Shown here: positions 387 to 37,005 of the stretch, in pieces
Numbering within the stretch: position 1 is the first letter of the stretch
Layout of the letters: every line of letters begins with the position of its first letter
Origin: a virus
Taxonomy: Duplodnaviria > Caudoviricetes
Virus record (IMG/VR): IMGVR_UViG_3300033463_000054
Location: 30,898-94,897 of that record
Strand: one strand, 5' to 3'
Length of the DNA: 64,000 bases
The notes under the pieces: generated by a model
Seen by the model: the letters and a program-made list of their open reading frames with translations, nothing else
Databases searched by the model: none
What the model was told of the DNA's origin: nothing
Position numbers and translations under genes: made by a program

Positions 387-1791
387 TTCTGTATCCATTG
401 AGGTTTCGGGTGGAATACTGATAATCGCCTACTGGTTTCGTGGAATCAGCTCCCGTTCTTTGTGCCCTCGTTGCAATAAATCCCCAATCGAATTTCTCGC
501 TCCACCCGAAGTTATTTATGTAGCCATAAGCGTTCGTGACACCCAAAAATCCTTCACAAGTGATACCTGTGGATTCATAGTTGCCAGATTTCTTACTTTC
601 GGCGTAATTATAGTCAGTACAGTAGTAAGCTACACCACCTCTTTTGTAGCCATTACCCCAGATGTTAACGCCATTAGTGAATTCCCAGAGATTACCCCAG
701 TCATTCTCTCGACCTCTGTATCGTATGGAGACTTTACCGTTCGTGGTTGATGTGATCTTAACTCCTGCACTCGAGATTTGAAGTGTCGATGATGCAGCAC
801 CAGACCCGTTACCAAGGCTAGCAGTAGAACCAGTCTGTACTCCCTCGTTACCCGTCGATGAAGCATACGCCGTACAACCATTTCCAATCACACTCTGCAT
901 ATTAAACGTCGCATACTCCACTACCATCAGCATTTGTTCCATGGAGTGGATTTGGAAGTTCTCGGAGTGCCATTTTGATCCTCTATTCTGGCACATCTTT
1001 TCTACATTCGGTCGGGTGAGGACATTTTGGGGTGTGCCGGATGCGTAGGACATGCCAGATGCAGGCTTAACTCCGGCTATCGAGCAAAACTTATCGTTAT
1101 CGAAGTCGTAAATATAAGTCTGCGGGGTTACTGTGGGATCGCCTGTTACGGGGTCCCAAGTAATGTCAAGATCATCGTACAAGACGTAAGCCGAACCTGA
1201 CACGTCATACACACTGCCCTCGTAAGCCGAAATATAAATACCGTCCATCTCATTACCATCGGGATCGAGAAATGCAGGATGGACTTTGAAACCATATTTG
1301 GGGGTGTCTGAGAGGTAGTAATTGACTTTGAGCAGATGATAACCCTCAGGATCAGTGTATTCAGTGGGTGTAGAAGCCGTAGCAGGTATCTCCTCAACCG
1401 CTATCTTTTCCATTTTGAGCGGAACTGTGCGGTAATAGAACTTCGGCTGGTAAACCATCACCTGACCATTGCTGCCGTCTTCAGTATAGCCAACATCACC
1501 ATACCAAGCATTAACAGTACCGTCATCAGCCAGATTACAAAGCTTACGATTACCATACATGTTATATGTATTGAAGTCCGAGCCTGCAGTCTTTCCCACA
1601 GCACCAGCCAGTCGAGTAAATGTCGAGTTCTCGAAGTCAGCCTGCAAGCCGATAATGTCATTTTGATCAGGATAACCTATCCACGCTTCAATGTCCCTTA
1701 TATCATCCCAACCATCAGCATACTTCACATCGAATGTGGTTTGAGTATTGCTTATTGGGACTGTAATATTTGAAACTTCTGAATTAGCCAT
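262..1791 (-). CDS. DGR target protein 1, receptor-binding/tail fibre protein with C-terminal CLec-type variable region
   Basis: 509 aa at the end of the tail module; C-terminus FRGGCWADSSYAGPF...SIGGRL is the typical DGR target motif; RBS GAGGTG. Confidence 0.88.
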   Translation of the reverse strand: MANSEVSNITVPISNTQTTFDVKYADGWDDIRDIEAWIGYPDQNDIIGLQADFENSTFTRLAGAVGKTAGSDFNTYNMYGNRKLCNLADDGTVNAWYGDVGYTEDGSNGQVMVYQPKFYYRTVPLKMEKIAVEEIPATASTPTEYTDPEGYHLLKVNYYLSDTPKYGFKVHPAFLDPDGNEMDGIYISAYEGSVYDVSGSAYVLYDDLDITWDPVTGDPTVTPQTYIYDFDNDKFCSIAGVKPASGMSYASGTPQNVLTRPNVEKMCQNRGSKWHSENFQIHSMEQMLMVVEYATFNMQSVIGNGCTAYASSTGNEGVQTGSTASLGNGSGAASSTLQISSAGVKITSTTNGKVSIRYRGRENDWGNLWEFTNGVNIWGNGYKRGGVAYYCTDYNYAESKKSGNYESTGITCEGFLGVTNAYGYINNFGWSEKFDWGFIATRAQRTGADSTKPVGDYQYSTRNLNGYRIVFRGGCWADSSYAGPFCWLWRNSVGSRARSIGGRLCCLDS

Positions 1792-1884
1792 TTTGATTTC
1801 ACCTCGATTTTATTTGAAGTGTTTATGTATAGATTTCTCACGAATTTACTTTCAGCATGCGCTGACATCCCTCAGGAATTCGGG

Positions 1885-2038
1885 TTGCTGCCAAAAAGGA
1901 GGCTTCGCTCCGCTCAGCAATCTAGGCAACAAAGACGGCCACCGATACTACGATACCGAGAACCCACGCTAAGATTCCAAGCCCAGCAAAACGGACCGGC
2001 ATAAGAGCTATTATTCCAAGCACCGCCACGATAGACGA
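1885..2038 (-). repeat. DGR variable repeat VR2 with IMH region and downstream hairpin (1898-1911)
   Basis: Copy of VR1 at offset 1652; A-only differences from TR. Confidence 0.92.
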
Positions 2039-3836
2039 TTCTGTATCCGTTAAGGTTTGATGTATAGTACCCATAATCGCCTACTGGAAGTGTCGCACTA
2101 GCTGGTGTACCAACAAGTGTCGGTATAAACATCCAGTCACATTCTACATTCCATCCAAAATATCTCGTGTAACCATTAGTCTTGGTGCAAGTAATATTGG
2201 TCGAAATATAATTCTCGGTCTTTTTACTCTCAGCGAAAGTCCAATCATCGCAGTAATAAGGTATACCGCCACGCTTTTTGCCATTACCCCAAATATTAAG
2301 ACCGTTCGTGAACTTATACATATTACCCCAGTCGTTCTCTCGACCTCTGTAACGTATAGAAAGTTTATTTGTTCCATCTGTAGAGGTATAAGTCGTGGCT
2401 CCTGTGGAAATATATCTCGTGGTTGTAGTTGCTGCTCCTGTACCGTTACCTATTGACGTCGTAGCTCCTGTCTGTACAGTATTAGATTCAGTGGAAATAT
2501 CAGTAATGCCCGTTACACCAGCACCAATAGCTGTCTGCATATTAAACGCACCATACTCGATTACCATAAGGAGTTGTTCCATCGACACGACTTGAGCATT
2601 CTCGCTATGCCATTTTGAACCTCTATTCTGGCACATTGATTCTACACCAGTTCGAGTCATACTAGTATGCTTAAGGCCACTTGCAGGTTTAACCCCGGCT
2701 ATAGAACAAAACTTATCTGTGGTTGTATCAGCCAAATAAGTATCATGAGTGTAATTACCATCGTCACTCATATCGTCATAAATGAGATACTTAGCAGCCG
2801 AAACGTCGTAAATACTTCCCTCATACGCGGAAATATAAATTCCATCCATCTCATTACCATCAGCATCGAGGAAAGCTGGATGTACCTTAAACCCATACTT
2901 AGGCTTGTCGGAGATGAAGTAATTGGCTTTAAGGAGGTGATATCCCTCGGGTTCGGTGTACTCGGGTGTAGCTGCCTCTGGGTCAATTACTTCAGGAGCA
3001 ATCTTTTCGAGTTTGAGAGGGAGGACTTTGTAGTAAAATTTCGGCTGATAGACCATGACCTGTCCATTCGAGCCGTCTTCTATATATCCCTGCTCACCAT
3101 ACCAAGCATTAACAGTACCATTATCAGCAAGGTTACAGAGCTTCCTATCACCATACATTTTGAACACATTGAAATCCGATCCTGCAGTCTTACCTACAGC
3201 ACCAGCCAGTCGAGTAAACGTCATGTTTTCGAAGTCGGCCTGTAAACCCACAATGCTCGTATCATCAGGATATCCCAGATACGCATGCATATCCTCAAGC
3301 TGTTCCTTAGCGTAAGCGTCCTTTATGTTGAGAAGCATATTAGGATGTGTGACAACTCTAATGCTTGTGGAGTTAAGCCATGTCAGACAGCTAGCCGCAG
3401 TATCATAACCAAAGAACGTCCACCAGTTTCTATAACCTTCAGGAGGTATCTCAAACCAAACTTGTGCATCTGTATATGACGTTGTAGTACCGTCAAGTTT
3501 ATTATACGTGTCATAATCCAGTGTTAGAATCATTGTATCATAATAGAAAGTAAATCTGAAGTTCTTGTAAGTAAGTACACCATCAAGATATGATCCCGGA
3601 TTATTCATTTTGATCCATATAGACTGTGGAATATAAGCATTACGAGTTCCATCGGGATAATAAGTCATTCTAGCCATTGCAAATCCCGGAGAGTATTCAT
3701 CAGTCCAGATATTGACTCTTAAATCGCCTATATAAAAGTCCCCATTCGTGTCGTTTACCACCACATCCGCAGCAGAGGGATAAGTGATATCGTAATCCAT
3801 GGGGACCGTCACTTTAGACATAGTTGCATTTGGCAT
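1914..3836 (-). CDS. DGR target protein 2, paralogue of 262-1791 with an extra N-terminal domain
   Basis: Shares the GLQADFEN...GQVMVYQPKFYY...YRGRENDWGN core; start set at the ATG after AGGAGG. Confidence 0.88.
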   Translation of the reverse strand: MPNATMSKVTVPMDYDITYPSAADVVVNDTNGDFYIGDLRVNIWTDEYSPGFAMARMTYYPDGTRNAYIPQSIWIKMNNPGSYLDGVLTYKNFRFTFYYDTMILTLDYDTYNKLDGTTTSYTDAQVWFEIPPEGYRNWWTFFGYDTAASCLTWLNSTSIRVVTHPNMLLNIKDAYAKEQLEDMHAYLGYPDDTSIVGLQADFENMTFTRLAGAVGKTAGSDFNVFKMYGDRKLCNLADNGTVNAWYGEQGYIEDGSNGQVMVYQPKFYYKVLPLKLEKIAPEVIDPEAATPEYTEPEGYHLLKANYFISDKPKYGFKVHPAFLDADGNEMDGIYISAYEGSIYDVSAAKYLIYDDMSDDGNYTHDTYLADTTTDKFCSIAGVKPASGLKHTSMTRTGVESMCQNRGSKWHSENAQVVSMEQLLMVIEYGAFNMQTAIGAGVTGITDISTESNTVQTGATTSIGNGTGAATTTTRYISTGATTYTSTDGTNKLSIRYRGRENDWGNMYKFTNGLNIWGNGKKRGGIPYYCDDWTFAESKKTENYISTNITCTKTNGYTRYFGWNVECDWMFIPTLVGTPASATLPVGDYGYYTSNLNGYRIVYRGGAWNNSSYAGPFCWAWNLSVGSRYRSIGGRLCCLDC

Positions 3837-3856
3837 TTTGAGTAACACCTCCTTTG

Positions 3857-5305: not shown

Positions 5306-5344
5306 TGTGCATTCTCCTTTCCATTTTGATTGAATTTACTTAGG

Positions 5345-6316
5345 TCAGGACACAGTGACTGTATCTGCTGTACCAGTGAATGTCGGGGTGGAAATTGTGC
5401 CTGCAGGAGTAATGTCACCATTAGAGGTAAGAGTGCTTCCTGTGAATGTCGGCGTGGAAACAGTACCTTCAGGAGTATATGTACCGGTTGCAGTAGCGCC
5501 TGTCATGAATGTCTTAGCAGTATCGGCTGTCGGAAGTGTACCGGGTGTGTAGCTAAGATTCTCCGTAGCGCTATCATAGCTAAATACGGGAAGCGTACCA
5601 ACTGCCGTTATACCTGTAACGGAGCCAGTGGTAGGTGTAACGCTAATATTCACGCTACCCTGTGTACCTGTGAATGTGGGAGTGGAAATTGTGCCTGTAG
5701 GAGTACCGGAGACTTGTACCGGCATGAGATTACCAGTAAATGTCGGGGTAGAAATTGAACCTGCAGGAGTAAAGCTACCCGATGCACTATCCTTAAATGC
5801 CAGATCGCCAAGACCAGACATATCGCCGAATTCGCTCCAATACAGCCCATCAAAGATAAACTCCTGATGAGAGTAGATAGCGATGTCTCCATTTTGAGCT
5901 TCAACCGGTTCGCCGTTAATGGTAATCGGGTTGGTAGACGCTCCATCGGTGAGGGCAGTAGTAGTCGTGCCGAGGAAGTGTATACCGCCCTGTCCGCCAC
6001 CTCCGCCACCACCGGAAGCAGCACCTCTAAAGGGACACTCGGCAAAGAGCTGTGCATGACACTCAAGAGTAGTCTCGCCAAGTGTGTATATCTTATTGTC
6101 AAGAACAGTCGTCACAAGACCCATCTGACCAGCCTTGAGCAGTATAACATTGTCAGCTTCTGCCACTATGCCAGACGTATCAGACATGTAAATATCAGTG
6201 TCACCAAGATTGCGCACCCAGACATAAACACTGTCCTTCTTACCGCCAAAATTGAACTTCTCAAACACTATTTCCTGTTCAGCAGCAGTCGTTATCACTG
6301 TTTTTATTTGTATCAT
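5345..6316 (-). CDS. Tail fibre-like protein with TPxG(T/S)(I/V)STPTFTG repeats
   Basis: 323 aa; poly-Gly linker; four Thr-rich repeats; tail module context. Confidence 0.6.
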   Translation of the reverse strand: MIQIKTVITTAAEQEIVFEKFNFGGKKDSVYVWVRNLGDTDIYMSDTSGIVAEADNVILLKAGQMGLVTTVLDNKIYTLGETTLECHAQLFAECPFRGAASGGGGGGGQGGIHFLGTTTTALTDGASTNPITINGEPVEAQNGDIAIYSHQEFIFDGLYWSEFGDMSGLGDLAFKDSASGSFTPAGSISTPTFTGNLMPVQVSGTPTGTISTPTFTGTQGSVNISVTPTTGSVTGITAVGTLPVFSYDSATENLSYTPGTLPTADTAKTFMTGATATGTYTPEGTVSTPTFTGSTLTSNGDITPAGTISTPTFTGTADTVTVS

Positions 6317-6343
6317 TAGGATTGCTCCTTTCTATTTTGAAAT

Positions 6344-7306
6344 TTAATAAGAATTCGGTAATACACCGCTTTTAAGACCGGTATATACATCATAAAACAT
6401 ATCTTTAATAAATGATGCGTAATCCTTATTTAATTTATCGCTAGTATTTTTTATTTTTGAAACATAAAACAAACTACAATCGCCAAATATTGCCATGCTA
6501 TCATTACCGCCCAGATTCATAGTCCATGTATTTTGACCCGGAATCCCTTCAGAATAACTATCATTATCTATAGTCGAACCGTATGAAAACCAAGTAGACA
6601 TCCAATCGACAACCGTTGTTACTGATACACTAACTCCAATAATAGGTTGTCCCGACGTAGAATTTATATGATAGTAATAAGTCGGTCCGGATACTGTAGC
6701 TGTGATTGAATTACCAATATCATCTATCTGTCCATGATAACCTGTTAAATATCTATTTCCTACATGATCTCCTATGTTTTTTGTGTTTATCCAACGATAT
6801 AATGGTGTAGTTCTATATATTGCTGATGCGCCTGTTGTAGGATACTTGCCATCAACGCCGGTATACCATACTTCAAAAAACAATGGTACATCAGAATCAA
6901 GCCATGTATATTGATACTGTAAATCCTCCAAAGGTGTCCGATAACCCAAACTATAACTATAATTACTAGAAAATAACATATCTATAAATTCATATAGTTT
7001 ACCGTTATTAGTTTTAAAATTTGGAACATACATTTTAAATCGATATTTTCTACCATAATTAAACTCGCCTACATTTTGAAAATATTGAGTGTTAAAACTT
7101 ACTCCATGTTCTCCATCATCACCATTTGAAAATATATTTACAGTAGGATCTATCATATCGTTAACATTCACTAATGCTCTATTATACAAATAACCTGTTG
7201 GCGGAATATACGTATTATTCGATAATGCGGTCAATGTCATTCCACTATAAGACCCACTTCCACCCATCATTATTCTAGCAGCATTGTAATTATCGCTCAT
7301 ATACAA
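6344..7306 (-). CDS. Putative minor tail protein
   Basis: Tyr/Asn-rich; N-terminal AARIMMxG motif shared with the adjacent gene. Confidence 0.55.
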   Translation of the reverse strand: MYMSDNYNAARIMMGGSGSYSGMTLTALSNNTYIPPTGYLYNRALVNVNDMIDPTVNIFSNGDDGEHGVSFNTQYFQNVGEFNYGRKYRFKMYVPNFKTNNGKLYEFIDMLFSSNYSYSLGYRTPLEDLQYQYTWLDSDVPLFFEVWYTGVDGKYPTTGASAIYRTTPLYRWINTKNIGDHVGNRYLTGYHGQIDDIGNSITATVSGPTYYYHINSTSGQPIIGVSVSVTTVVDWMSTWFSYGSTIDNDSYSEGIPGQNTWTMNLGGNDSMAIFGDCSLFYVSKIKNTSDKLNKDYASFIKDMFYDVYTGLKSGVLPNSY

Positions 7307-8291
7307 TCACTCCTGTACTATCAATTTCTTTATAATGATTAGGAAATGGATCGTAATACGTATTAATAGCATTAATTTTAGCAATGTGATACATCAATTC
7401 TTCCATAGAAACAGAATGCCATATTACGGTACTATTCCAAGGAGTATAATGATTGGTACTAACCACTGAATATGAAGCATCTTCCCATTCTGCGCCTGAC
7501 TCATAAGCCCCTCGATGTATTCGTACACCTGATCGATACGGTCCAGACGATTCTAATACAAAATGTCCACTACCAACTGTGTATCCAGATTGTTGCACGC
7601 GTATCCTATTTTCAGGATTAGCCATCATTGTCCAAAATTCCTGTCTAAGTTTACCAATATCAGTATATTTATCAGGGGCCGTATATAATGTATAGTCTTC
7701 TCTAGAATATAATTTTAATTCATTATCTGTAGAAGTAATGAATAACGGCACGTCTATTCCGGTTTTATAGAAAGCAAATAATGTGTTAGCATATATTACA
7801 TAGCTATCAACATAAGAATAATCCAAATCATGATAACCGGTACCAGCGTCATTTATGAATCCGTAATACATATACCAAGAATATGATGGATTAAAAACAA
7901 TATGAGTTATAGGAGTTTCGTTGTCGCTACTATTTGCAATAGATTTAGCGCCCATTCTAACATCGATCTCATAATCGTCACCCATTTTGAACACTATATG
8001 ATATGCCGATCCTGCAAAAAACTCATCATAAACATTCCAATTGTATACAAAAGGGTTTTGTTGGTTATAATACCGCTTCGTAGCAACCTTAACCTTGTCC
8101 CACATCTCGTTTTGTATAATACTTCCGCTTGGAGCAAATTCTCCGTTAGCTATAATAAGTTTATTTACTTTAGTAACGTTGCCGCCCGGACCATCCATCA
8201 TTATTCTGGCAGCTTCTATATTATTCAAGATGTGAGACCTCCTTTCTGTTAAAATGTTTTCTGGAAAATACCTTCTGGGAAAATTTTCCAT
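7290..8291 (-). CDS. Putative minor tail protein
   Basis: 333 aa; AARIMMDG motif; downstream of the Tal-like gene. Confidence 0.55.
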   Translation of the reverse strand: MENFPRRYFPENILTERRSHILNNIEAARIMMDGPGGNVTKVNKLIIANGEFAPSGSIIQNEMWDKVKVATKRYYNQQNPFVYNWNVYDEFFAGSAYHIVFKMGDDYEIDVRMGAKSIANSSDNETPITHIVFNPSYSWYMYYGFINDAGTGYHDLDYSYVDSYVIYANTLFAFYKTGIDVPLFITSTDNELKLYSREDYTLYTAPDKYTDIGKLRQEFWTMMANPENRIRVQQSGYTVGSGHFVLESSGPYRSGVRIHRGAYESGAEWEDASYSVVSTNHYTPWNSTVIWHSVSMEELMYHIAKINAINTYYDPFPNHYKEIDSTGVIVYER

Positions 8292-8335
8292 TTTGAATTC
8301 TTGAAAAATGTTGAATGCTAATGAAACTTTTTCAT

Positions 8336-9955
8336 TTAGGAATTGTTGTTAGATGGAAAATACGTGCCTTTAGCTACATCTTCCTTGGTTATGTCGCTGC
8401 GTTCATCACCTGAGCCAGTTGCAGTATAAACTTCTTCATGATCAGCCGTCTCGGTAACAACAGTATTATCATCAATCTTCTTAACTCTTGTTGGTTCAAC
8501 CATCTGATAATAAGTTGTTCCATTTTGAGCAACCGCCTGAAGTATACCTGCCGATTTAGCTTTTGCTCGATCGTAATATTCGGTGAGCATCTTTGGACTC
8601 GTCGGAATAGTATAGTTATCATAAATTTGAAATCTATACTCTGTAGCTCCGGGATTATCGAGATCCATAGATAAAGCTGAACAAACAAATTCATCATTAT
8701 CGTACTCATCCTGTCCATGAGCATCACCGGCATTAAAGTACGCTCCCCAACCAATATTTAAAAAGTTATTAGGATTAAACTGAGATTCGTCACTATCATG
8801 TTCAAACATATCAGCTAAAAGTATTGGAGTATATCCTTCATCTCGTACTTCTGACAACCAAGCAAGTTCTACAGCCGTTACATTAAATTCACACGCTTTT
8901 CTCTTTTCATATGCTGTAAGATTAGCTTGTGCTACAGCTTCAAGGGTTGTTCTATCAGTACATTCACTATAATCTATAGTTTTTTCTATATAGCCGTACT
9001 CTCCAAGCAACGAACTAGCCATATAATCACTAGTCGCCATATACGCTTTGTAGTTTTCACCTGACGGAGAATGCCATGTGCAATCTTCACTCAAACGTAT
9101 TTTATTGGCACCAAGAGGTATAACTGCATTATAAATTTCGAGACCGTCACCATTATTCTTATAATCTACCAAGTTGTTAGCGAATTCTATACGTTTTACA
9201 GATTCGCCCCACGGTAAATATGCTACAAATAAAGTAAGACCATCGCCACTATCGTCCCTATATTCAGCCCATATACCAACTTTAGGATCAAGCCCTGCTA
9301 TTTCACTAAACATATCGAAGAATGTTCTATAGTCGTCTATACTAGCATACGTAGCATAATTTATATACCCATTATATGAATCGGGATCTGTTGGATCATA
9401 CGGGGTTACAACTACGAAACTATCAAACTTTCTTTTATATGCTTTTGTTGTAACAATGGCGTTGTATTCCCCAAAAAGCTCATCCATAAGTTTGATTGCG
9501 GACATGTTATATGCTTTATTTTCGTTTTGACCAGACGCCCAGAAATATTTCCTAGGACGAACCATAACATCGTTAAGAAACGCAAGAGCTCCTTCACAAG
9601 TAATGTTTCGTTCAAGATTAAAAGTCTTTTCAATTGTTAATACACGACCATACCATATATTATGTCCATTTGTATAAGTATGATGTTCTGCATCGTAATC
9701 GCAATCTATATCGACTTTAATAGTTGTGCCTAAAGGAAACATTGAATTAACTAAGGGATGCTCAGGACCAATTGTAAACGTAAGAGATCCAGCTCTATTC
9801 ATTTCTTTTTCCATTTTGATATTATAAGCAAATGCTTTATCCTGCTCAATAGGAGACCCATAAATAAAGTCTGGAAAATTCTCTGCGGCATGAACTAATT
9901 GCCAGTTATAAGTTGTTGAATGAACACTGGTATCAGCAAAAATATAAAATTTCAC
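8336..9955 (-). CDS. Tail tip/hub protein (Tal-like, phage tail endopeptidase family)
   Basis: AGSLTFTI...HP, WYGRVL, TCEGALAFLND, NAVIPLGA motifs; follows Dit. Confidence 0.75.
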   Translation of the reverse strand: MKFYIFADTSVHSTTYNWQLVHAAENFPDFIYGSPIEQDKAFAYNIKMEKEMNRAGSLTFTIGPEHPLVNSMFPLGTTIKVDIDCDYDAEHHTYTNGHNIWYGRVLTIEKTFNLERNITCEGALAFLNDVMVRPRKYFWASGQNENKAYNMSAIKLMDELFGEYNAIVTTKAYKRKFDSFVVVTPYDPTDPDSYNGYINYATYASIDDYRTFFDMFSEIAGLDPKVGIWAEYRDDSGDGLTLFVAYLPWGESVKRIEFANNLVDYKNNGDGLEIYNAVIPLGANKIRLSEDCTWHSPSGENYKAYMATSDYMASSLLGEYGYIEKTIDYSECTDRTTLEAVAQANLTAYEKRKACEFNVTAVELAWLSEVRDEGYTPILLADMFEHDSDESQFNPNNFLNIGWGAYFNAGDAHGQDEYDNDEFVCSALSMDLDNPGATEYRFQIYDNYTIPTSPKMLTEYYDRAKAKSAGILQAVAQNGTTYYQMVEPTRVKKIDDNTVVTETADHEEVYTATGSGDERSDITKEDVAKGTYFPSNNNS

Positions 9956-10587: not shown

Positions 10588-10624
10588 TAGAGTTGTAACC
10601 TCCTTTTATTTCATTTTGATCATC

Positions 10625-23340: not shown

Positions 23341-23381
23341 GTGGATTTCCTCCTTGATTTAAGAATTTTCACCATTTTGAT

Positions 23382-24006: not shown

Positions 24007-24042
24007 TAATTACACCCCATTTTGAATTTTCAGCCGATTAAA

Positions 24043-25934: not shown

Positions 25935-26330
25935 TTATGAATTGATTTTATTCATACATGCTCTTATAGCTTCACGTTCTTTTTCGTTTGTAGCCATTTT
26001 AAGCATGTCGTCTAGACGTTGTATGAGTTCGCGATGTTCATCATGTGTGCTATGACCATCGCCATAATTAACGTCATAATACATACGACTGGAACCAATC
26101 GGATATCTATCTGCATAACTATTATAAGAACGATTTCGTCTATAGCTATTATAGCTGTCATCACGAGAATATCCTCTTTCTTCCATAGCGCAAACAGTAT
26201 CTATGCATTTAATAGCATGCGAGAGTTTGTCTATATGATCCAGCTTTTCAGGAGAAAGGGGTTTTTCATCAGAAAACGTTTCGAGCTCGCGCATCAGCTT
26301 TTCTCGGAGCTCATAAATTTTGTTGCTCAT
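25935..26330 (-). CDS. Hypothetical helical protein (accessory module gene 6)
   Basis: 131 aa, RBS, Tyr/Ser/Arg-rich middle. Confidence 0.7.
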   Translation of the reverse strand: MSNKIYELREKLMRELETFSDEKPLSPEKLDHIDKLSHAIKCIDTVCAMEERGYSRDDSYNSYRRNRSYNSYADRYPIGSSRMYYDVNYGDGHSTHDEHRELIQRLDDMLKMATNEKEREAIRACMNKINS

Positions 26331-26344
26331 TTTGAACTCCTTTC

Positions 26345-27596: not shown

Positions 27597-27673
27597 AAGG
27601 ATTACCTCCCAAAATAAAATCACACTTTTAATAGTGTTTTCAAGTCTCTTAACAAATGCTGTCCATTTTGATT

Positions 27674-29320: not shown

Positions 29321-29792
29321 CAGACTTTTCCTCTCTTGTTATCTGTTTGTCATAGTTCTTTTTGTAATTCTGCTTCCTATTAACGATTTCACTAAGCCTC
29401 TGTTCAAGCTCATCTCTTGTTACAAACTTGTCAGTGTCAACAGTAGATACAGGTTTAGATTCAACCTTAGCCTGTTTCTCATACACGACCAGTTCGTATG
29501 GTGCATTAGGAAAAGCAGTTTTAATAAATATAAATTTGTCATCCTTACTCATGAACATCTGAGTTATACCAGCCGCTACAGGATAATTTTCCACAGCCTG
29601 TCTATCCTCAACCTGAATAATCTCAGCTCGAATAGTTGGCGGTGTCATCTGTTGAGTAGGCTGTACATTTTGAACTGTTTGACCTACCGGATTTTGTGTA
29701 TAATTATACGAGGGATAAGTCTGAGTCGGAAATGGATACTGTGTACCATAACCATATGTCGGATTATACCCCGTAGGAAAATACTGAGGCAT
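29313..29792 (-). CDS. Pro/Tyr/Gln-rich protein (module gene 2)
   Basis: 159 aa; YPVAAG, FIFIK, FVTRDELE. Confidence 0.7.
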   Translation of the reverse strand: MPQYFPTGYNPTYGYGTQYPFPTQTYPSYNYTQNPVGQTVQNVQPTQQMTPPTIRAEIIQVEDRQAVENYPVAAGITQMFMSKDDKFIFIKTAFPNAPYELVVYEKQAKVESKPVSTVDTDKFVTRDELEQRLSEIVNRKQNYKKNYDKQITREEKSDG

Positions 29793-30180: not shown

Positions 30181-31269
30181 TCACTTCTTCTTAGCATAAG
30201 ATTCGTAAATTCTATCGAATTCTCTGTTCTGTATCTCACGATACTTATCGGTCAACAATTTACGATTGGCGGCACTGGCAGCTCTAAGCTCCTTGATATG
30301 AGCTCGGAGTTCATCAGATGCACCCTTTTGTCTCGTTCTAGAATCCTCGTTATAAGCCTTGAGTTCCTCGCGAACAGACTTGATACCATCATTAATACTC
30401 TTCGTAGCTTGCTTAACCCCAGCGGCATTAGATGCTCTATAATTAGCAAGCTCTTCAGAATTCTTAGCTTTATAATCTTTAAGTCCGCTTGAAACACCAG
30501 ACTTAGACGTAGCAAGGTCAGCCGATATTTTAGCATTTTCATTGCTCTTATCTGCTCTAATCTTAGCAATGTCTTTCCTAAGCGATTCCTTCTGAGAAGT
30601 ATCTTTGGTTGATTTGATTTGTGCTTGTTTCTGTTCTATCTTTGTCTGAGCATTTTGAGTAGTACGCTCTTTATCGCGCTTAGCCTTTTCGGAAAGTTTC
30701 TCTTTGGTCTTTGTTGCAGTATCAGATGCTCGAGTATTATCGTTCTTAATGTCAGTACGCTTCTTCTCGAGTTCTGATTTAAACTGCTCTTTCTTTCCAG
30801 CCAACTGTTCTTTAAGCGTTTGGATACGAGCATTAATCAACTCTTTGTATTTGCCTCGTTCATCGTTAGCCAAACCTTTAAGCTGAGTAATAGCGTTCTG
30901 AATTTGATCAATCTGTCCCTGAGTAGTATTTTTAATTGACTCTTGTTCAGTCTGCTTTTCTTTCTTAATGTTCTCCTGAACTACAGAGTAAATCTCTTTA
31001 CCCTCGTCAGAAAGCTGTGATTTTGAACGAGTTCTACCTTTGAGCTGTTTAGTTTTCTCGTAATACTCATGGGCCTTCTGGTAATTGTAGTAAGGGCTTG
31101 AATACGCGTTCTTAGTCGGTCCATATCCAGCTCCACCTTGAGTACCATCGCTAGCAGCGTGTATGAGATAACCTTCTCGATTAACATCCATACCTCTAGC
31201 GTTAAGCCACTGTTTGGAGAATTCCATCAGAGCTGCATTATTTACGCCATTTTGAATTTTACGTACCAT
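30181..31269 (-). CDS. Basic coiled-coil protein
   Basis: YLIHAA and YYNYQKAHEYYEKTKQLKGR, then a Lys-rich coiled coil. Confidence 0.7.
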   Translation of the reverse strand: MVRKIQNGVNNAALMEFSKQWLNARGMDVNREGYLIHAASDGTQGGAGYGPTKNAYSSPYYNYQKAHEYYEKTKQLKGRTRSKSQLSDEGKEIYSVVQENIKKEKQTEQESIKNTTQGQIDQIQNAITQLKGLANDERGKYKELINARIQTLKEQLAGKKEQFKSELEKKRTDIKNDNTRASDTATKTKEKLSEKAKRDKERTTQNAQTKIEQKQAQIKSTKDTSQKESLRKDIAKIRADKSNENAKISADLATSKSGVSSGLKDYKAKNSEELANYRASNAAGVKQATKSINDGIKSVREELKAYNEDSRTRQKGASDELRAHIKELRAASAANRKLLTDKYREIQNREFDRIYESYAKKK

Positions 31270-32605
31270 CAAGCTCCGCCTCCAGACTATCAAGCTCGGC
31301 TTCCTGCTTATCTATCTCGGCTATTGCCTTATCAAGTTCTTCATCAGTCATCTGTGAAGGATCCATGTTAGCATAATCTGGCTGACTTGTTTCGGCACCA
31401 GCAACATTTGTCATGTCATACGGCATGTTCGAGTTAACAAGCTGATCAGCCTTAGGATCGCTAGAAGGTTTCATACCCAGTGCCTGACGTACCTCATTAG
31501 AAGTAAGTATCTCGTTTCTAGTAAGCTTATCAGCAAGGTCTGCAAGCTGAGACATAGGCACGAGACTAAACCTATCGTGGAAGTATCTTATAGCCTGCCT
31601 CTGTGTACGAGCGGTTTTAGATAAGAATTTACGTTCCATCTCTTCAGTTATAGCCTGCACAATAACCTCAATTACACGCGTCATATAATTCAGCATTTCA
31701 GTCTCACTAGCTGTACCATTCAGTATTTCAGGTGTCATGCCAAGCTGACCATAAAGCATATTAGTGAGGTATTCGATCTGAGCTTGAAGATTATTCTCAA
31801 GAGGTCTACCTAAAGTAGTAATCTTCTCAGTACCATCAGTATAAGCAATGCCATACTTAGACTCTGTAAGCTGCCTTTCAATCTCAGTTCTACGCTTTTC
31901 AGCCTGCTCTCTTCTAGCTTCTGACTTGATAATGTAAGGAAGCTGAATGATCATCTGAAGTTTACCATTATTCTCTTCATCGACAGCATCGAGCAAAGAT
32001 AGTTTCTTGATCAGTCGTTGTAAAGTTGAGTTTGGAGCATTCATGATGGGATAAAAAGGGTTCTCGACCAAAGCACAACACCGTTTGGAAAAAGGAATAT
32101 CTTGTTTTTCCATAGTATCTTCATTGTATACTCGAACCTTCACCCATGTCGGATGCCACTCAACAACCTGCCCAACTTTCATCTCAAGAACTTTATAACT
32201 ATCAGTTAGCTCCGGATCAGTGTCGGTACGAAAGGGCACGATCGCTATATGGCCCTGATCGATCAAGGTAAATGCAGCATCGCGCATAAACTCTCTACCT
32301 GTCTGATCTCTGTTCGCTTCGGTATTAAGACAATAATTCAACGTACTGTCTATATTAGACTCATAATTACCGTTTTCATCGACTTTAACATGCCGGACAT
32401 CTACCCTAGAACAATCAACAGCTATTTTATTATAAATAGCTGCTATAATCGATCGTTCTGCACCCCAGTTCATACGCGGTCTATCTGGTTTAAACGAAGA
32501 ACTCCGCTCAATAACCGAAACCGATGTAGTTGCAGGAGGTGTGGGATCACGATTCATGAAGGCATTCCAAGCATGTTTCAGCCTGTTAGTTATTGTTTCT
32601 GCCAT
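31259..32605 (-). CDS. Portal protein
   Basis: RLKHAWNAF, EANRDQTGR, IIQLPY, YGIAYTDG, NEILTSNEVR. Confidence 0.9.
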   Translation of the reverse strand: MAETITNRLKHAWNAFMNRDPTPPATTSVSVIERSSSFKPDRPRMNWGAERSIIAAIYNKIAVDCSRVDVRHVKVDENGNYESNIDSTLNYCLNTEANRDQTGREFMRDAAFTLIDQGHIAIVPFRTDTDPELTDSYKVLEMKVGQVVEWHPTWVKVRVYNEDTMEKQDIPFSKRCCALVENPFYPIMNAPNSTLQRLIKKLSLLDAVDEENNGKLQMIIQLPYIIKSEARREQAEKRRTEIERQLTESKYGIAYTDGTEKITTLGRPLENNLQAQIEYLTNMLYGQLGMTPEILNGTASETEMLNYMTRVIEVIVQAITEEMERKFLSKTARTQRQAIRYFHDRFSLVPMSQLADLADKLTRNEILTSNEVRQALGMKPSSDPKADQLVNSNMPYDMTNVAGAETSQPDYANMDPSQMTDEELDKAIAEIDKQEAELDSLEAELDGT

Positions 32606-32621
32606 TTTGAATTTTCACACC

Positions 32622-33350
32622 CTATCTTCGTTTAATCAAATCTTTTACACTACCGCCTTCGGAGTAAACCGGGTAAAGTGCTTTAGAAGCAAACCTTCCG
32701 GCAGTCTTTCCGAGTGTAGCTCCCTTAGCGGCCGCAGCAGTACCACCAAAAGGTTCGAACTTGGTCTTAACACCCATCTTCTTCGCAACTTCTTTATACA
32801 TCTTATGAGCATTGTAACCAGCAACCGCACCAGCATCACGCGCAAGTTTGGTAAACTCTCGTTCGAATTCCTTCTCGGACGCAGCAGCTTTTCCAAGTTT
32901 TGCTTTAGTCTTATTGTAGGTATCTGTAATAAATCCTTCAGACAGATCCGAAACTGTTCGAGCCACAGTTTTACTTATTCTCGACATGTCAGAAGGACTA
33001 GACAAATATCGATAAAGATCTACGCCCTTATCTGACAGAATATTCTGCACTTCATCAGCCGCAGATCGAATCAAATCTGTAGGATCTTTAGCAAAGTCAG
33101 TAGCTTTCTTAGCGGTATTAAGCACTTTACTAGCAACATCAGCTCTCTTAGCCTTATCTATCATATTTACGGCTTTATTACCATAACGTGTATAGAAATC
33201 ACTAAATTTCTTAACTGCTCTTGCTGCTCCGTAACCATAATGCTTTCGTCCAGCGTCGGTAAGGGATCCATCTTCATTTTGATACCTACGTACTCCCCAT
33301 TTCTGGTTTAATACACCGTGATGATACAGTTCTGTACAATTCTCATACAT
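32622..33350 (-). CDS. HHG-motif (DUF7211-like) protein
   Basis: ELYHHGVLNQKWGVRRYQNEDGSLT. Confidence 0.75.
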   Translation of the reverse strand: MYENCTELYHHGVLNQKWGVRRYQNEDGSLTDAGRKHYGYGAARAVKKFSDFYTRYGNKAVNMIDKAKRADVASKVLNTAKKATDFAKDPTDLIRSAADEVQNILSDKGVDLYRYLSSPSDMSRISKTVARTVSDLSEGFITDTYNKTKAKLGKAAASEKEFEREFTKLARDAGAVAGYNAHKMYKEVAKKMGVKTKFEPFGGTAAAAKGATLGKTAGRFASKALYPVYSEGGSVKDLIKRR

Positions 33351-33961: not shown

Positions 33962-35134
33962 CTATTTAAATTTTCGCTTAATGTTTCTAGCTTTATCCTT
34001 AACGAAAGTTTTAGCGTTATCGGCACTCTTTGCGTAATGACCAATGAGACGTTTGCCATACACAGCAGCGTTGTCTCTAGCAGCCTTATTAACTTCGTCG
34101 TTGGTAAGCCTTCGAGTATCGATCTTTCTAAGTTCATTATCGGTGTTAAACATTATCTGAGGAGCATAAGTATGGAACGTCGAATATTTAAGGTCATTTA
34201 CGTCAAGTATCGATCCATAACCCTTTTTGATCAGATTGTCGTAAACTTTCTTACCACTATCATAGTAGAAATTATATTTAGTTCCTGTAATCTTAGAAGT
34301 AGCTTCGCCCCAGTCAGTCAAGCCAACATTATAGAACTCATATCCATAATCACGCATCTTACGTTCGTAATTAATGCGATCTTTAATGGATCTGTTCTTG
34401 TTCTTATCCGCTTCTTTAAGTTCTTCTCGCATCTTTGAAAAACTTTCAGGATGCCATTCGGAATGGAAATCAACTTTATCCCAGAAATCCTTCTGAAATT
34501 CCTTATCTCCTCTATAAGCTTCCATGAATGCCTTAGCAGCGGTCTTCTTGCCAGCACCTTTGATGTCCTTTTCAGCAACGTAATGCGTCTGATAAGAAGG
34601 AAGATCTTCACCAGCTCTGCTATTTTGAACTTTGGTATAGATACCCTTATAGAAGTCTGCGTCGTGTTTATTAATAGACATCCACTTACTTTGATGCTGA
34701 GGTCCATTAGGATTCTTACCAATGTTATAAATGTCAGTTCCTTTCGGAATCACGTAATCAGCATCGAGATCCATAAAACTCTTTCGATTTCCATGTTTAT
34801 CGACTTGACCTCGCTGCATTTCATCCATAATGTTTTTACCCATATCAGTAGCGGCAATAACATCGTGAACACTCTGATCCAAAGCATTGTATTGGCTCGG
34901 ATCTTTGTCAAGAACGCCCTTAACAATCATAGCTGCTCCGACAGTAGCCAAAGCGCCACTAACAAAAACAGCCCCAGTAGCTATACGCTTTACACGTTCT
35001 TTTTCGCTTCCAGCACCAGCTTCGTCTTGATAAGGACGTTCTCCGCTTCCCCAAGGATATCGGCCTGAATGACGAGGAGTACCGTAATGCATTAACTCAT
35101 TTTGATAAAAACTTGGGATCATTACATAATCCAA
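33962..35134 (-). CDS. HYG-motif protein with a TM-like segment and an uncharacterised globular domain
   Basis: ELMHYGTPRHSGRYPWGSG, nearly identical to the polymerase N-terminal motif. Confidence 0.75.
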   Translation of the reverse strand: MDYVMIPSFYQNELMHYGTPRHSGRYPWGSGERPYQDEAGAGSEKERVKRIATGAVFVSGALATVGAAMIVKGVLDKDPSQYNALDQSVHDVIAATDMGKNIMDEMQRGQVDKHGNRKSFMDLDADYVIPKGTDIYNIGKNPNGPQHQSKWMSINKHDADFYKGIYTKVQNSRAGEDLPSYQTHYVAEKDIKGAGKKTAAKAFMEAYRGDKEFQKDFWDKVDFHSEWHPESFSKMREELKEADKNKNRSIKDRINYERKMRDYGYEFYNVGLTDWGEATSKITGTKYNFYYDSGKKVYDNLIKKGYGSILDVNDLKYSTFHTYAPQIMFNTDNELRKIDTRRLTNDEVNKAARDNAAVYGKRLIGHYAKSADNAKTFVKDKARNIKRKFK

Positions 35135-35249
35135 ATAGCACCCCTCCTTTATAGTTTATTCTGTATAATAAGGATACAACTCAAACATACTACGTATAAT
35201 GTATCACAGTATGATACATTTCAGTTTCTCGATCCATTACTTCACTTCC

Positions 35250-36992
35250 TTAATCAAACATTTCAACGTTGACCTTGTAAGCGTAATATGCATCGAGCAT
35301 AGCTGCCACACAGTCAATCTTTTCTTCTCGACGTTTCTTGTATAACTTTCTATTACCATTTGTGTCTTCGAGCGCAATACAATGACCCATAGTAAACGAC
35401 AGAATCTCCTGATCAAAGATAAGCATGCGTTCACTGGCGAGTTTCTTGATCTCACCAAGAGGAACGCTTTCTGTCTTAACGCCCTGTTGAACTTTAGTCA
35501 CACCGAACTGGGTATTCTCACTACACCAACGATCGACGAATTCACGAGCGTTATACGGGTCGAAACCAAACGATCTAACGTCGTACTCATTTTGAACGAT
35601 GTAGTTATCTAGTTCGTCATAGACAGCCATCATATCGAGAACAGCACCATCCATAACAACAAGAGATCCTTCAGCAATAAATTCGTCATATTTGTCTCGT
35701 AGAGATTCATGAAGCCTTCGATAGGTCAGATCCGTAATGTAGTTACGAGTCTTAATTCCAAAGCAACCATTACCCAAAGGAAAGACAAATGTAAATGCAC
35801 AGAAGTCATCTCCCTGTGAAAGGTCCGCTCCCATAGAACAAGCCATCTTCCAGAAATTCTTCTGAGGAAACTTCTGTATTTCTTCAAGTGTAAAGAAGTA
35901 CACAAAGCCTTCCATCGGTATACCGAATCTCTTAGCTAGTATATCGTTTCGTGCTGAAGGAACATTCTCAGCTCTTTCAACCTCGCGCTGATAGGTATCA
36001 TAAGAAACAGTCTTACCAAGATTAGGATTAGCTTTGATCCACATCTCAGGCTTACCAACTTCATCAATAGAGTCTAGCTTATACCACCAGATACTAACGT
36101 GATCGTTCTTGTATTCGCCTCTAAGGATCTTGGTAAGCTCCATTTTGATTGAATCGCCAATACCGTTTCTTACAGTACCTTCTGAACTCGTTGCAAGTAT
36201 AACATAATCGTCAATCTTAGCAGCACCCTGTTCAATAGCGCCTATAGGGTCTTCTCTAATAGGACAAGACAGCCACTCGTCAACCGTATTGTATTTGGAT
36301 CTGTAACCCTGAAGTTTATCGATACTCATAGGTAAGCTTACAAGAAGTGAAGCTGTCATAAAGTTCTCGATGCCCTTCTTAGTGGAAGCTAACTTCTTCC
36401 TAAGAGCAAAATTGCCGGTAGTATTTTGAAGCGATCCTTCCGTCAGTAACTTAAGTACAGGACCACGAGCTCTGAGTATAGCAGTCTTTATCGGGTTAAT
36501 AACTTCCTCGGACTGTTTCATAGTCGGAGCTGTCGTAAGCTGGAACGTTGTAGATCCATCCACAATAATGCCGTATGCCTGTACAAAGCTCTCATACAAA
36601 GTCTTAGCAGCTGATCGTCCTATGATGAGATACTGCTTGTTAATTAGCCTTCTCTTAATGTCTTTCCATACGTAACGACCGCCTAATCCATGAGGGAAAG
36701 GCTCGAAAGTCTTAACGTGTTCAAAGTAATACCAACCGAAAAGCTCTTCGCCCCAAAGTTTAAAGCTATCAAGAAGCTCAACTGGGCTACCATCAGTCAG
36801 CGTTAATTCGTTCTCGCAAAACTTGACCCAACCCTCTACTGGATCCGGATCGTAATAGTATTCGGGATTTGCAATGAAGCCGTCTATTCGCTCCATTTCC
36901 ATAGAGACTTCGTGACTTATAGGTATCAAGCCTCGTAATACGGCATCCCGAAACTCGCCATAATACTTTGGCACAGCCGTATTAGATAGCAT
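35250..36992 (-). CDS. terL: Terminase large subunit
   Basis: Walker A-like GRSAAKT, Walker B TVDEW, ATSSEG, nuclease GADLS, FDPYNA, KIDCVAA. Confidence 0.93.
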   Translation of the reverse strand: MLSNTAVPKYYGEFRDAVLRGLIPISHEVSMEMERIDGFIANPEYYYDPDPVEGWVKFCENELTLTDGSPVELLDSFKLWGEELFGWYYFEHVKTFEPFPHGLGGRYVWKDIKRRLINKQYLIIGRSAAKTLYESFVQAYGIIVDGSTTFQLTTAPTMKQSEEVINPIKTAILRARGPVLKLLTEGSLQNTTGNFALRKKLASTKKGIENFMTASLLVSLPMSIDKLQGYRSKYNTVDEWLSCPIREDPIGAIEQGAAKIDDYVILATSSEGTVRNGIGDSIKMELTKILRGEYKNDHVSIWWYKLDSIDEVGKPEMWIKANPNLGKTVSYDTYQREVERAENVPSARNDILAKRFGIPMEGFVYFFTLEEIQKFPQKNFWKMACSMGADLSQGDDFCAFTFVFPLGNGCFGIKTRNYITDLTYRRLHESLRDKYDEFIAEGSLVVMDGAVLDMMAVYDELDNYIVQNEYDVRSFGFDPYNAREFVDRWCSENTQFGVTKVQQGVKTESVPLGEIKKLASERMLIFDQEILSFTMGHCIALEDTNGNRKLYKKRREEKIDCVAAMLDAYYAYKVNVEMFD

Positions 36993-37005
36993 TTTGAACT
37001 ACTCC

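Follow-up and report, generated by a model that had tools for sequence, protein, structure and literature searches.

What is the function of a single octamer that recurs, always on the same strand, through most of the late genes of a phage? The question is raised by a cattle-gut phage (IMG/VR record IMGVR_UViG_3300033463_000054; 94,897 bp) in which the word TCAAAATG spans the particle-building two-thirds of the genome. DNA of this phage is also found in bovine-gut and other gut metagenome runs; no RNA run was among those listed for the late region. The window described here is the stretch of 64,000 nucleotides from position 30,898 to position 94,897 of the record, and coordinates are those of the window unless genome positions are specified. 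CATTTTGA is the form of the word on the + strand of the window, and TCAAAATG is the form read on the gene strand (−).

Extent and abundance of the word

An exact-match count gives 39 copies of CATTTTGA in the window, all on the + strand between 971 and 36997, compared with 4.1 ± 2.1 on both strands (maximum 10) in 100 dinucleotide shuffles. The original prediction, made by eye, of roughly 35–40 plus-strand copies between 0.97 and 37 kb is thus borne out, with zero on the other strand; all nine copies cited in it as examples were located, one of them at 24018 rather than 24019. To the left of the window the domain runs on to genome position 5983, with 29 further copies, such that the whole genome holds 68 on the gene strand and 0 on the opposite strand, for a Markov expectation of about 3–4 (an excess of ~20-fold). 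All 68 fall within one contiguous block (genome 5983–67887, 62 of 95 kb), the first copy of which supplies the terL start codon and along which the word recurs every 0.7–2 kb, always pointing with the transcription axis. The word had not been found by eye right of 39 kb; there is indeed no copy right of 36997, but only ~1 would be expected in that arm, which therefore shows an absence of enrichment and not a depletion. Depletion is likewise not significant on the opposite strand (0 versus 2–3 expected) or in the early arm (0 versus about 1). The name ‘structural arm’, under which the block was first described, is too narrow, as the block also takes in the tail-fibre/DGR genes and the integrase and small-cassette region, and reaches up to the DNA polymerase gene.

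The consensus is TCAAAATR, mostly TCAAAATG, with G usually the next base. The variant TCAAAATA is enriched alongside it, again in this block and on this strand (27 versus 3 in this phage), and relatives give gene-strand versus opposite-strand counts for it of 10 versus 1 (G004) and 4 versus 0 (NapoleonB). No partner element was found within ±45 nt, and no information beyond positions −2 to +1. The part of the domain in the window (971..36997, −) contains the following gene-strand copies, listed in the direction of transcription together with three variants.

36990..36997, −: opens the domain; terL starts at its ATG, Shine–Dalgarno (SD) sequence upstream
36141..36148, −: in terL at +849; encodes I-K-M, position conserved across phyla
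35588..35595, −: in terL, out of frame
35098..35105, −: in 390-aa gene; encodes Y-Q-N-E close to the N-terminus
33275..33282, −: in 257-aa gene, inside the peptide KWGVRRYQNEDG
32603..32610, −: ATG is the portal start codon
31248..31255, −: junction of portal and next gene, within 370-aa ORF
30651..30658, −: intragenic, 370-aa gene
29666..29673, −: intragenic, 159-aa gene
27664..27671, −: ~43 nt upstream of the start of gene 26820–27623
26328..26335, −: ATG is the start codon of gene 25935–26330
25431..25438, −: intragenic, 627-aa head protease/capsid gene
24018..24025, −: intergenic, 14 nt upstream of the start of gene 23671–24006
23373..23380, −: intergenic, 35 nt upstream of the start of gene 22384–23340
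21484..21491, −: 34 nt upstream of the start of gene 21006–21452
20891..20898, −: in 183-aa ORF 20455–21006 at +113; encodes S-K-W, conserved across phyla
20264..20271, −: in 260-aa DUF7211 gene, inside the peptide RKYQNEDG
19473..19480, −: intragenic, 128-aa gene upstream of the tape measure gene
15344, 16204 and 19002, −: TCAAAATA variants in the 5′ half of the tape measure gene
11161, 11266, 12241, 13706 and 14516 (11161..14523), −: five copies in the 2820-aa tape measure gene
10612..10619, −: immediately before the SD and start of gene 9952–10587
8521 and 9812 (8521..9819), −: two intragenic copies, 539-aa tail gene
8289..8296, −: ATG is the start codon of gene 7290–8291
5890, 7072 and 7983 (5890..7990), −: three intragenic copies, tail genes
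5322..5329, −: tail gene 3857–5305 starts 19 nt downstream
3834..3841, −: 640-aa tail-fibre paralog probably starts at its ATG, SD upstream
2611, 3156 and 3606 (2611..3613), −: three copies in the 640-aa tail-fibre gene
1789..1796, −: 509-aa tail-fibre paralog starts at its ATG
971, 1411 and 1659 (971..1666), −: three copies in the 509-aa tail-fibre gene

As had been noted, copies lie both within genes and in gaps: ~45 of the 68 are intragenic, with every reading frame represented and the AUG out of frame in half of them, and about 19–23 coincide with gene starts or closely precede them. The word provides no fewer than 10 start codons in this phage, among them the four that had been named (terL, the portal and the two tail-fibre paralogs, at 36990, 32603, 1789 and 3834); the ‘others’ mentioned alongside these include the genes starting at 8291 and 26330. 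The integrase gene, the only one on the opposite strand, carries one copy antisense.

Selection at the nucleotide level

The check proposed with the original prediction was a codon-preserving shuffle. With start-codon and intergenic copies held fixed, it gives 26.1 ± 2.9 copies (maximum 34 in 300 shuffles) for the 68 observed, and the enrichment therefore persists. Within the block, 53 of the 66 peptide sites able to encode the word do so, when 7.1 would be expected from codon usage; outside it the figure is 0 of 10. The paralogous peptide RRYQNEDG contains the word within the block and is coded differently outside it. A paralog beyond the domain (37459–38697) has the peptide KWGVRRYQNEDG coded TAT CAG AAC GAA, without the word. 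The peptide YQNEDG is itself repeated, with three copies 96 bp apart within one gene. Selection acts on the word at the nucleotide level, overriding codon usage and even shaping protein sequence, which makes this a regulatory word strong enough to set codon choice, and even amino acids, in essential structural genes. The word acts at the level of DNA or RNA and not via protein or codons, since it occurs in three frames and in intergenic positions, TCAAAATA is co-enriched, the integrase copy is antisense and RRYQNEDG is coded differently outside the block.

Conservation in relatives

Across 14 genomes (this phage and 13 relatives bearing its RNA polymerase, discussed below), the gene strand has 209 copies and the opposite strand 5. 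The respective counts are 74/2 for G001–G005, 22/2 for FP_oengus, 8/0 for Lactococcus phage 1706, 11/0 for P092 and 26/1 for five actinophages, in which a reversed-word control gives 1/1. The hosts of the relatives (Faecalibacterium, Lactococcus, Arthrobacter, Streptomyces, Gordonia, Rhodococcus and Bifidobacterium) belong to two phyla, and TCAAAATG does not differ between phages of Clostridia, Bacilli and Actinobacteria. Apart from a few strays, the copies in relatives lie in the structural arm after the polymerase gene; in FP_oengus, unbiased k-mer discovery ranks the word among the top hits.

Individual sites are conserved as well. In FP_oengus the terL start is arranged in the same way, with the word at 37138. 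The I-K-M site in terL (36141) reads xTC AAA ATG in nine genomes while neighbouring synonymous sites vary; the peptide does not force the word, because NapoleonB codes the same residues ATT AAG ATG. The S-K-W site (20891) reads TCA AAA TGG in seven genomes, including those of high-GC Streptomyces, Gordonia and Rhodococcus phages, and TCA AAA TGT at the aligned position in FP_oengus. The actinophage arms have 46–62 % GC and keep the word by using AAA and TCA, rare codons there. Every relative has several copies in its tape measure gene.

The relation to gene starts differs between clades. In the 60-kb relatives, roughly one copy in two coincides with a start codon. With respect to the SD, the word lies downstream in Firmicutes phages and upstream in actinophages, where it is mostly intergenic or abuts the SD (TCAAAATGGGAGT), with the start codon 13–45 nt downstream. 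Some copies in FP_oengus and G002 are immediately 3′ of terminator T-tracts. Spacing between copies is more even than random in five of eight relatives (CV 0.27–0.40); in this phage evenness is not significant, either for the word (CV 0.86, P = 0.15) or when TCAAAATA is included (CV 0.84, P = 0.06).

The RNA polymerase as candidate reader

The last large gene before the domain starts encodes the candidate reader.

39745..42660, −: 971-aa single-chain two-barrel RNA polymerase (phrog_4291, HTH, catalytic motif)

The protein matches phrog_4291 over residues 32–966 (E = 0), has HTH domains at its N- and C-termini and carries the catalytic loop GADFDGD at 560–566. A sequence search against the PDB gave no match; the best fold match of an AlphaFold model (pLDDT 73) is QDE-1 (E 3.7e-5), with beta-prime chains of RNA polymerase next. 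Given the loop, the predicted QDE-1-like fold and the HTH domains at both ends, the assignment as a polymerase is credible, and Koert et al. (bioRxiv 10.1101/842583) can be cited in its support. A catalytic-motif search for a second two-barrel polymerase, for example one fused to the tape measure protein as in P23-45, found none. The N-terminal tag of the enzyme is common to other putative virion cargo proteins, and its homolog in ReqiPoco6 is labelled ‘structural protein’ in GenBank, by similarity to 1706 gp75; on these grounds it may be an early enzyme that is injected.

It should be noted that co-occurrence across phages cannot tell the polymerase apart from other candidate readers, because terL and the polymerase are strictly co-inherited. 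Homologs of terL have at least 55 % identity in roughly 250 polymerase-bearing phages and then fall straight to 26 %, which implies that the structural module never occurs in a phage lacking the polymerase; in conservation, terL and an HNH nuclease equal the polymerase itself. The block does not follow the polymerase gene directly: it starts 2.7 kb further downstream in this phage and 5.7 kb further downstream in FP_oengus. A scan of 30–46 kb showed no excess of sigma-70-like sites, and the stretch from the polymerase gene to terL contained no strong terminator.

An HTH-fused two-barrel RNA polymerase of this kind is encoded by at least 250 sequenced phages, including many SEA-PHAGES actinophages, dairy lactococcal phages and Faecalibacterium gut phages, and to our knowledge no promoter is known for this type of enzyme. 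As the word tracks the enzyme over two phyla, it provides a concrete hypothesis that is cheap to test in cultivable members.

A proposed late promoter or initiator

That the word is a strand-polar cis signal of late class, as was first proposed, is strongly supported by its restriction to one domain, its conservation across phyla together with a phage polymerase and the selection at synonymous sites. It is most likely the late transcription signal of the family, because it occupies the same place in relatives that share the polymerase. Amongst the functions originally offered for it, a short late promoter fits best. We put at about 0.5 the probability that TCAAAATG serves the phage polymerase, or a conserved phage factor working with it, as a compact late promoter or initiator. 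TCAAAATR would then be the core of the late-class signal in the supercluster that has the HTH-fused single-chain polymerase, and the enzyme, or the factor acting with it, would start late transcripts at the word. As the copies point with transcription and recur along the block, the products would be nested, co-directional late mRNAs, comparable to those from the 8-bp TATAAATA of T4. Both the polymerase as reader and initiation as the act are inferred here. The placement of the word before the SD in actinophages, the copies after T-tracts and the approximately one third of copies at or before gene starts suggest a promoter. Against this, two thirds of the copies are intragenic and those in the tape measure gene have no obvious gene to serve; the even spacing in relatives fits an interval signal as well as it fits one promoter per gene; and a transcript that started within a start-codon copy would lack the upstream SD.

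A 27-bp intergenic element that resembles a promoter, TCGCA-N5-TACA-N4-CTTATATGGAGA, occurs only in the early arm. It ends in ATGGAG, similar to the late word, and is an equally good candidate for the cognate promoter of the polymerase. Its counterparts in FP_oengus and P092 are all outside the structural arms of those phages and no copy was found in the late arm of this one, which would leave TCAAAATG as the sole conserved candidate signal there. The early and replication arm has a polar word of its own, TGATATTT; with TCAAAATG marking the late block, this suggests that the signals are class-specific.

Full-text literature searches for TCAAAATG returned only primer listings, and searches on YonO and on motifs of actinophages gave no description of it either; nor did the literature searches yield a transcriptome for a member of the family. 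Whatever its reader, the word is a simple marker of late regions and gene orientation in metagenomic phage contigs; word and enzyme could also form a minimal orthogonal promoter–polymerase pair for Gram-positive hosts.

Alternative functions

The best placed of the alternatives, though an unlikely one, is that the word is an elongation signal in the non-template strand (an ops-like pause, an antitermination site or a processivity element), with the late genes expressed by read-through from upstream promoters. Read-through is possible in that all genes but one are co-directional, and the lack of a strong intrinsic terminator before terL, the recurrence of copies in long genes and the evenness of spacing in relatives are all consistent with it; moreover, HTH domains fused to the polymerase would not be released after initiation. 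However, ops, nut and put systems have one or a few sites per operon and not one per kilobase, intergenic copies occupy promoter positions (after T-tracts and directly before the SD), and the block begins some kilobases past the polymerase gene rather than at a transcript start.

Next, and also unlikely, the word might be needed for late expression every 1–2 kb on one strand instead of serving as a promoter gene by gene. It could, for instance, mark strand-specific nick or loading sites at which the fused-HTH polymerase is licensed or re-started, so that the sequence itself would embody a ‘mobile enhancer’ logic like that of T4. Such a relay would explain the even spacing, the conserved copies in terL and the tape measure gene, and a polarity that ignores gene orientation.

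We think it rather improbable that the word acts on DNA apart from transcription, as strand-specific nick sites in the virion like those of T5, as a polar packaging or ejection signal starting from the terminase end, or as a Chi-like protector of concatemer ends that is read by the phage. T5-like nick sites and the Chi and KOPS words are short, lie on one strand and are spread along a chromosome or replication arm. The polarity of TCAAAATG follows the genome axis absolutely, even across the opposite-strand integrase gene; the block starts at terL, which adjoins the packaging start in cos-ended relatives; the even spacing is independent of gene boundaries; and terL and the HNH nuclease match the polymerase in conservation. 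Yet the block corresponds to an expression class and not to the whole chromosome, the early and replication arm having its own polar word, and we know of no packaging motor or ejection system that reads repeated internal words. Chi and KOPS are host-specific words read by host enzymes, whereas TCAAAATG covers only 62 of 95 kb and does not change from one host phylum to another.

Less probable again is an action in the late mRNA, as a site for an RNA-binding protein or endoribonuclease, or as a translation-initiation box like the start-associated sequences (SAS) of Cluster K. The word is on the sense strand of the late genes, contains AUG and supplies many start codons. A translational site, which had been among the original suggestions, is nevertheless disfavoured by the intragenic copies in all frames, the co-enrichment of TCAAAATA, the reversal of position relative to the SD between Firmicutes phages and actinophages, and the antisense copy in the integrase gene.

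Finally, that the word simply arises from composition, codon usage or repeated domains in proteins, as the few copies in the repeated YQNEDG peptide might suggest, is refuted by the excess over the Markov expectation, the codon shuffle, the realised-site test at fixed protein sequence and the synonymous conservation across phyla with rare codons in actinophages, and its probability is close to nil.

Relation to known systems

The T4 late promoter, TATAAATA, is 8 bp long and is read by gp55 and gp33 with the sliding clamp. TCAAAATG resembles it in being a compact, AT-rich, strand-specific 8-bp word with no upstream partner, in having dozens of copies through the late genes, some in upstream coding sequence, and in its letter-for-letter conservation over a phage superfamily with a phage-encoded reader, which here is putative. 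It is, however, another word, with copies denser inside long genes, and the presumed reader is a single-chain phage polymerase where T4 redirects that of the host; no match to gp55, gp33 or the clamp was found among roughly 24 proteins of this phage that were scanned.

Thermus phage P23-45 has two two-barrel polymerases, gp96 in the virion and gp64 outside it (PMC10770324). As here, the polymerase is a single chain, and conserved class-specific motifs track the enzyme phyletically and pick out a single genome region. Those motifs are at least 15 nt (MEME -minw 15) and lie upstream of mapped pre-early and early start sites (PMC10770324), whereas TCAAAATG is 8–9 nt, belongs to late genes and is mostly intragenic; in addition, there is one polymerase in this family, not two. 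YonO of SPbeta, a Firmicutes siphophage, is also a single-chain two-barrel polymerase and transcribes the late structural and lysis genes (PMC5467207). It is distant from the present enzyme, has no fused HTH domains and has an undefined promoter; in SPbeta TCAAAATG shows neither enrichment nor polarity, its 5 versus 9 copies being the chance level.

The SAS of Cluster K mycobacteriophages and Cluster EF Microbacterium phages are similarly asymmetric words tied to gene starts (PMC7302621). They are 13 bp, cover the ribosome-binding site 3–8 bp before start codons, are strictly intergenic and are specific to a cluster (PMC7302621). TCAAAATG falls outside this class, as most of its copies are intragenic, its position relative to the SD is variable and it is common to two phyla.

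Genomic setting and distribution of the octamer

The window, bases 30,898–94,897, belongs to a single phage contig of 94,897 bp that is found repeatedly in bovine-gut metagenomes. The phage is a siphovirus, in which genes for TerL, portal, a head protease/capsid fusion, a 2,820-aa tape measure and the tail were identified; the replication genes are located left of the window. All sizeable genes lie on the minus strand, with the sole exception of a tyrosine integrase, the presence of which makes it probable that the phage is temperate. The genes needed below, some of them on L001 and L002 (stretches of the same genome reaching left of the window), are as follows.

Genome 22,834–24,036 (L002 7834–9036), plus strand: tyrosine integrase with an N-terminal zinc ribbon, the only sizeable opposite-strand gene
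L001 12649–13605, 14194–15111 and 17081–17866: three DUF6353 (phrog_2152) paralogs, with the cassette region on one side and the replication genes on the other
Window 39,745–42,660: 971-aa RNA polymerase, the last large gene ahead of the word-bearing block

The octamer TCAAAATG (hereafter the word), which reads CATTTTGA on the plus strand of the window, occurs there 39 times in the latter form, on that strand only, from 971 to 36,997. Shuffling of the window gives 4.1 +/- 2.1 copies on both strands combined, and the strand-polarised enrichment claimed in the original prediction is thus borne out. In the whole genome there are 68 copies on the gene strand and 0 on the opposite one, spanning genome 5,983–67,887, where Markov models of order 1–3 predict 3–4 genome-wide. 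The first copy of this block provides the start codon of terL; there follow the head, tail and tail-fibre/DGR genes, the integrase and small-gene cassette region and the three DUF6353 genes, and the block ends within and just past the DNA polymerase gene. The 33 kb outside it (the early arm of small genes, the helicase/kinase region and the stretch from the RNA polymerase gene to terL) contain no copy, but only about one would be expected, so that the zero denotes lack of enrichment rather than avoidance. One copy (genome 23583) lies antisense within the integrase gene, which indicates that the polarity tracks the axis of the genome, whatever the coding strand at that point. Three copies in a 464-aa gene (L002 13657, 13753 and 13849; genome 28657, 28753 and 28849) are spaced by exactly 96 bp, pointing to a 32-residue tandem repeat in the protein.

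Codon usage and protein sequence

Of the 68 copies, 28 have their ATG in frame, 29 have it in the +1 frame and six in the +2 frame; the remaining five fall between crude gene calls. The enrichment survives a codon-preserving shuffle of the kind that the original prediction had proposed as a check: synonymous shuffling within genes, with start codons and intergenic DNA kept unchanged, leaves 26.1 +/- 2.9 copies (maximum 34 in 300 shuffles) as against the 68 observed. With the protein held fixed, the word is used at 53 of 66 compatible peptide positions in the block, where the codon usage of the block itself predicts 7.1, and at none of 10 beyond it. Compatible peptides are also about 3.5 times denser within the block than outside, so that protein sequence too has been shaped by the word. 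A paralogous peptide, KWG(I/V)R(R/K)YQNEDG, is coded TAT CAA AAT GAA in its two in-block copies and TAT CAG AAC GAA between the polymerase gene and terL. The shuffle, the fixed-protein test and this recoding rule out a codon or protein artefact as the source of the word.

The motif is compact (G-N-TCAAAAT-[G/A]-R), and the surrounding 45 nt on either side are otherwise without conservation. A variant, TCAAAATA, is enriched together with it, again in this block and on this strand (27 versus 3 in this genome, 10 versus 1 in the relative G004, 4 versus 0 in Arthrobacter phage NapoleonB), from which it follows that the ATG as a codon is not what the word is for.

Conservation among relatives

Counts of TCAAAATG, given as polymerase strand vs opposite strand
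Phage; polymerase identity; copies
G001–G005 (five ~60-kb IMG/VR relatives); 46–50%; 74 vs 2
Faecalibacterium FP_oengus; 47%; 22 vs 2
Lactococcus P092; 36%; 11 vs 0, all within 1.3–16.8 kb
Lactococcus 1706; –; 8 vs 0
Arthrobacter NapoleonB; 43%; 4 vs 0
Streptomyces SheRa; 42%; 3 vs 0
Gordonia Kenosha; –; 4 vs 0
Rhodococcus ReqiPepy6; –; 9 vs 1
Bifidobacterium BitterVaud1; 40%; 6 vs 0

Over 14 genomes, this phage included, the sum is 209 versus 5. In the 60-kb relatives nearly all gene-strand copies fall within a late block of ~30 kb downstream of the polymerase gene, and unbiased k-mer discovery in FP_oengus places the word among the top octamers. The structural arms of five actinophages are 46–62% GC, so that an AT-rich word should be rare there by chance; the reversed word, as a control across these five, gives 1 versus 1. 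In contrast, SPbeta, whose YonO polymerase is a distant relative lacking the helix-turn-helix (HTH), has TCAAAATG at chance level (5 versus 9).

Two individual sites are kept across phyla. At terL +852 the peptide D-T-(I/V)-K-M-E-L is coded xTC AAA ATG in nine genomes, in which all flanking synonymous positions vary; the identical peptide in NapoleonB is coded ATT AAG ATG, and the word is therefore not forced by the TerL peptide. At +113 of a ~183-aa protein, S-K-W is written TCA AAA TGG in seven of eight aligned genomes, even in high-GC phages that use AAG for nearby lysines, the exception being FP_oengus (TCA AAA TGT). Since phages infecting Clostridia, Bacilli and Actinobacteria share the identical word, whatever reads it must be conserved among the phages or, if it comes from the host, very highly conserved.

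Other class-specific elements

A 27-bp promoter-like element, TCGCA-N5-TACA-N4-CTTATATGGAGA, is present in 14 exact copies and about six variants, and most copies are followed by a Shine–Dalgarno (SD) sequence and a start codon. Its sites are confined to the early arm, the cassette region adjoining the integrase and a position before the helicase gene; in the late arm of this phage none was found.

Window 44118, 45054, 46083, 50204, 51356, 54640, 59787 and 60058, and genome 1982 and 18291–22802, gene strand only: 27-bp element
Window 42600–64000 and genome 1–30000 (L001, L002), gene strand: TGATATTT, dense in the early and replication arms

Look-alikes of the 27-bp element were detected in FP_oengus (ACGCGAAAAA..CAG-N4-CTTTATGGARG) and P092 (TTTTACATACCCTATAATGA), all beyond the structural arms, and at its 3' end (..ATGGAG) it is similar to the late word with its flank. 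TGATATTT has 111 gene-strand copies (its 7-mer TGATATT, 151 versus 2) and extends into the TCAAAATG block at genome 6–30 kb only. Intergenic positions account for about a quarter of its copies, frequently at SD-TGATATTT-ATG junctions. In FP_oengus it ranks first among octamers (33 versus 0), and it counts 8 versus 1 in BitterVaud1; enrichment was not seen in P092. NapoleonB has all four of its copies on the reverse strand, clustered in 3.3 kb (32509–35775), which is presumably a leftward-transcribed early block, in which case TGATATTT would also follow the direction of transcription. Different expression classes in this genome are thus marked by polar words of their own.

The candidate reader and the function of the word

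The 971-aa polymerase matches PHROG 4291 from end to end, has sigma-region-4-like HTH domains at both termini and contains a GADFDGD catalytic loop. Its predicted fold (pLDDT 73) has as top PDB match the two-barrel polymerase QDE-1 (E 3.7e-5), followed by RDR2 and then the beta-prime subunits of cellular RNA polymerases. Homologs occur in at least 250 phage records. Koert et al. (bioRxiv 10.1101/842583) described the protein as the signature of a supercluster in which phages of Lactococcus and Faecalibacterium are grouped with many actinophages.

As the block coincides with an expression class, a transcriptional role is the simplest function. In the best-supported model the word is a compact late promoter or initiator at which the phage's own polymerase would start late transcripts, and among the roles in the original prediction it is the late promoter that fits best. 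We put its probability at about 0.5, among other reasons because of the 27-bp element, the even spacing of copies in tape measure genes, and the co-inheritance of terL, an HNH nuclease and the polymerase, owing to which the phyletic pattern cannot single out the reader.

An equally good candidate for the cognate promoter of the polymerase, in this case an early one, is the 27-bp element. The enzyme has an N-terminal tag, LMHYGT.RHSGRYPWGSG, in common with two other proteins, and its homolog in ReqiPoco6 is labelled 'structural protein'. The tag may be a virion-targeting signal, in which case the polymerase would be an injected enzyme; together with the ReqiPoco6 label, this is the basis for considering that it may act early.

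Window 42538–42660: tag L(M/Y)HYGTxRHSGRYPWGSG in the polymerase
Window 35020–35134: the tag in a 390-aa protein adjoining terL
L002 12280–12354: the tag in a 211-aa protein

Three further proteins, DUF7211-like, have YHHG..KWGIRRYQNEDG(S/T)LT in common.

The spacing of copies suggests another possibility, namely that the word is a signal required at intervals, which might serve elongation or processivity or might mark the DNA itself, for instance through nicks. Spacing in the relatives is more even than random (CV 0.27–0.40; P <= 0.005 in five of eight genomes), and every tape measure gene of the relatives contains several copies, evenly spaced. In this phage the density is about twice that of the relatives and the spacing is near random.

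Placement relative to start codons varies. Here some 10–14 copies are start codons with an upstream SD, including those of terL, portal and both tail-fibre paralogs; about nine lie just 5' of a start and about 45 are intragenic. For the 60-kb relatives, start codons make up about half of the copies, with the arrangement AGGAG-N-AAT-TCAAAATGGC. The order is reversed in actinophages, where the word has a longer consensus, TCAAAATGG(G/A)A (often TCAAAATGGGAGT), and is intergenic, immediately before the SD, with the start codon 13–45 nt downstream. A few copies in FP_oengus and G002 are directly preceded by terminator T-tracts. A role in translation initiation, or a SAS-like one, is the least consistent with the data.

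No description of the late word was found in the searchable literature. With regard to the late-promoter model, the closest analogy is the 8-bp TATAAATA of T4, which likewise occurs in multiple copies across late genes, some in upstream coding sequence, and is conserved alongside a phage-encoded reader. Of the two-barrel phage polymerases, those of P23-45 are each accompanied by class-specific motifs (PMC10770324); the promoter of SPbeta YonO is still undefined (PMC5467207).

Finally, the deposited CDS at 38952–40004 of FP_oengus is on the minus strand, and the plus strand there carries the site of the ~183-aa protein (LEHSL..SKWE-like), with TCAAAATG at 39806; the CDS may therefore have been assigned to the wrong strand.
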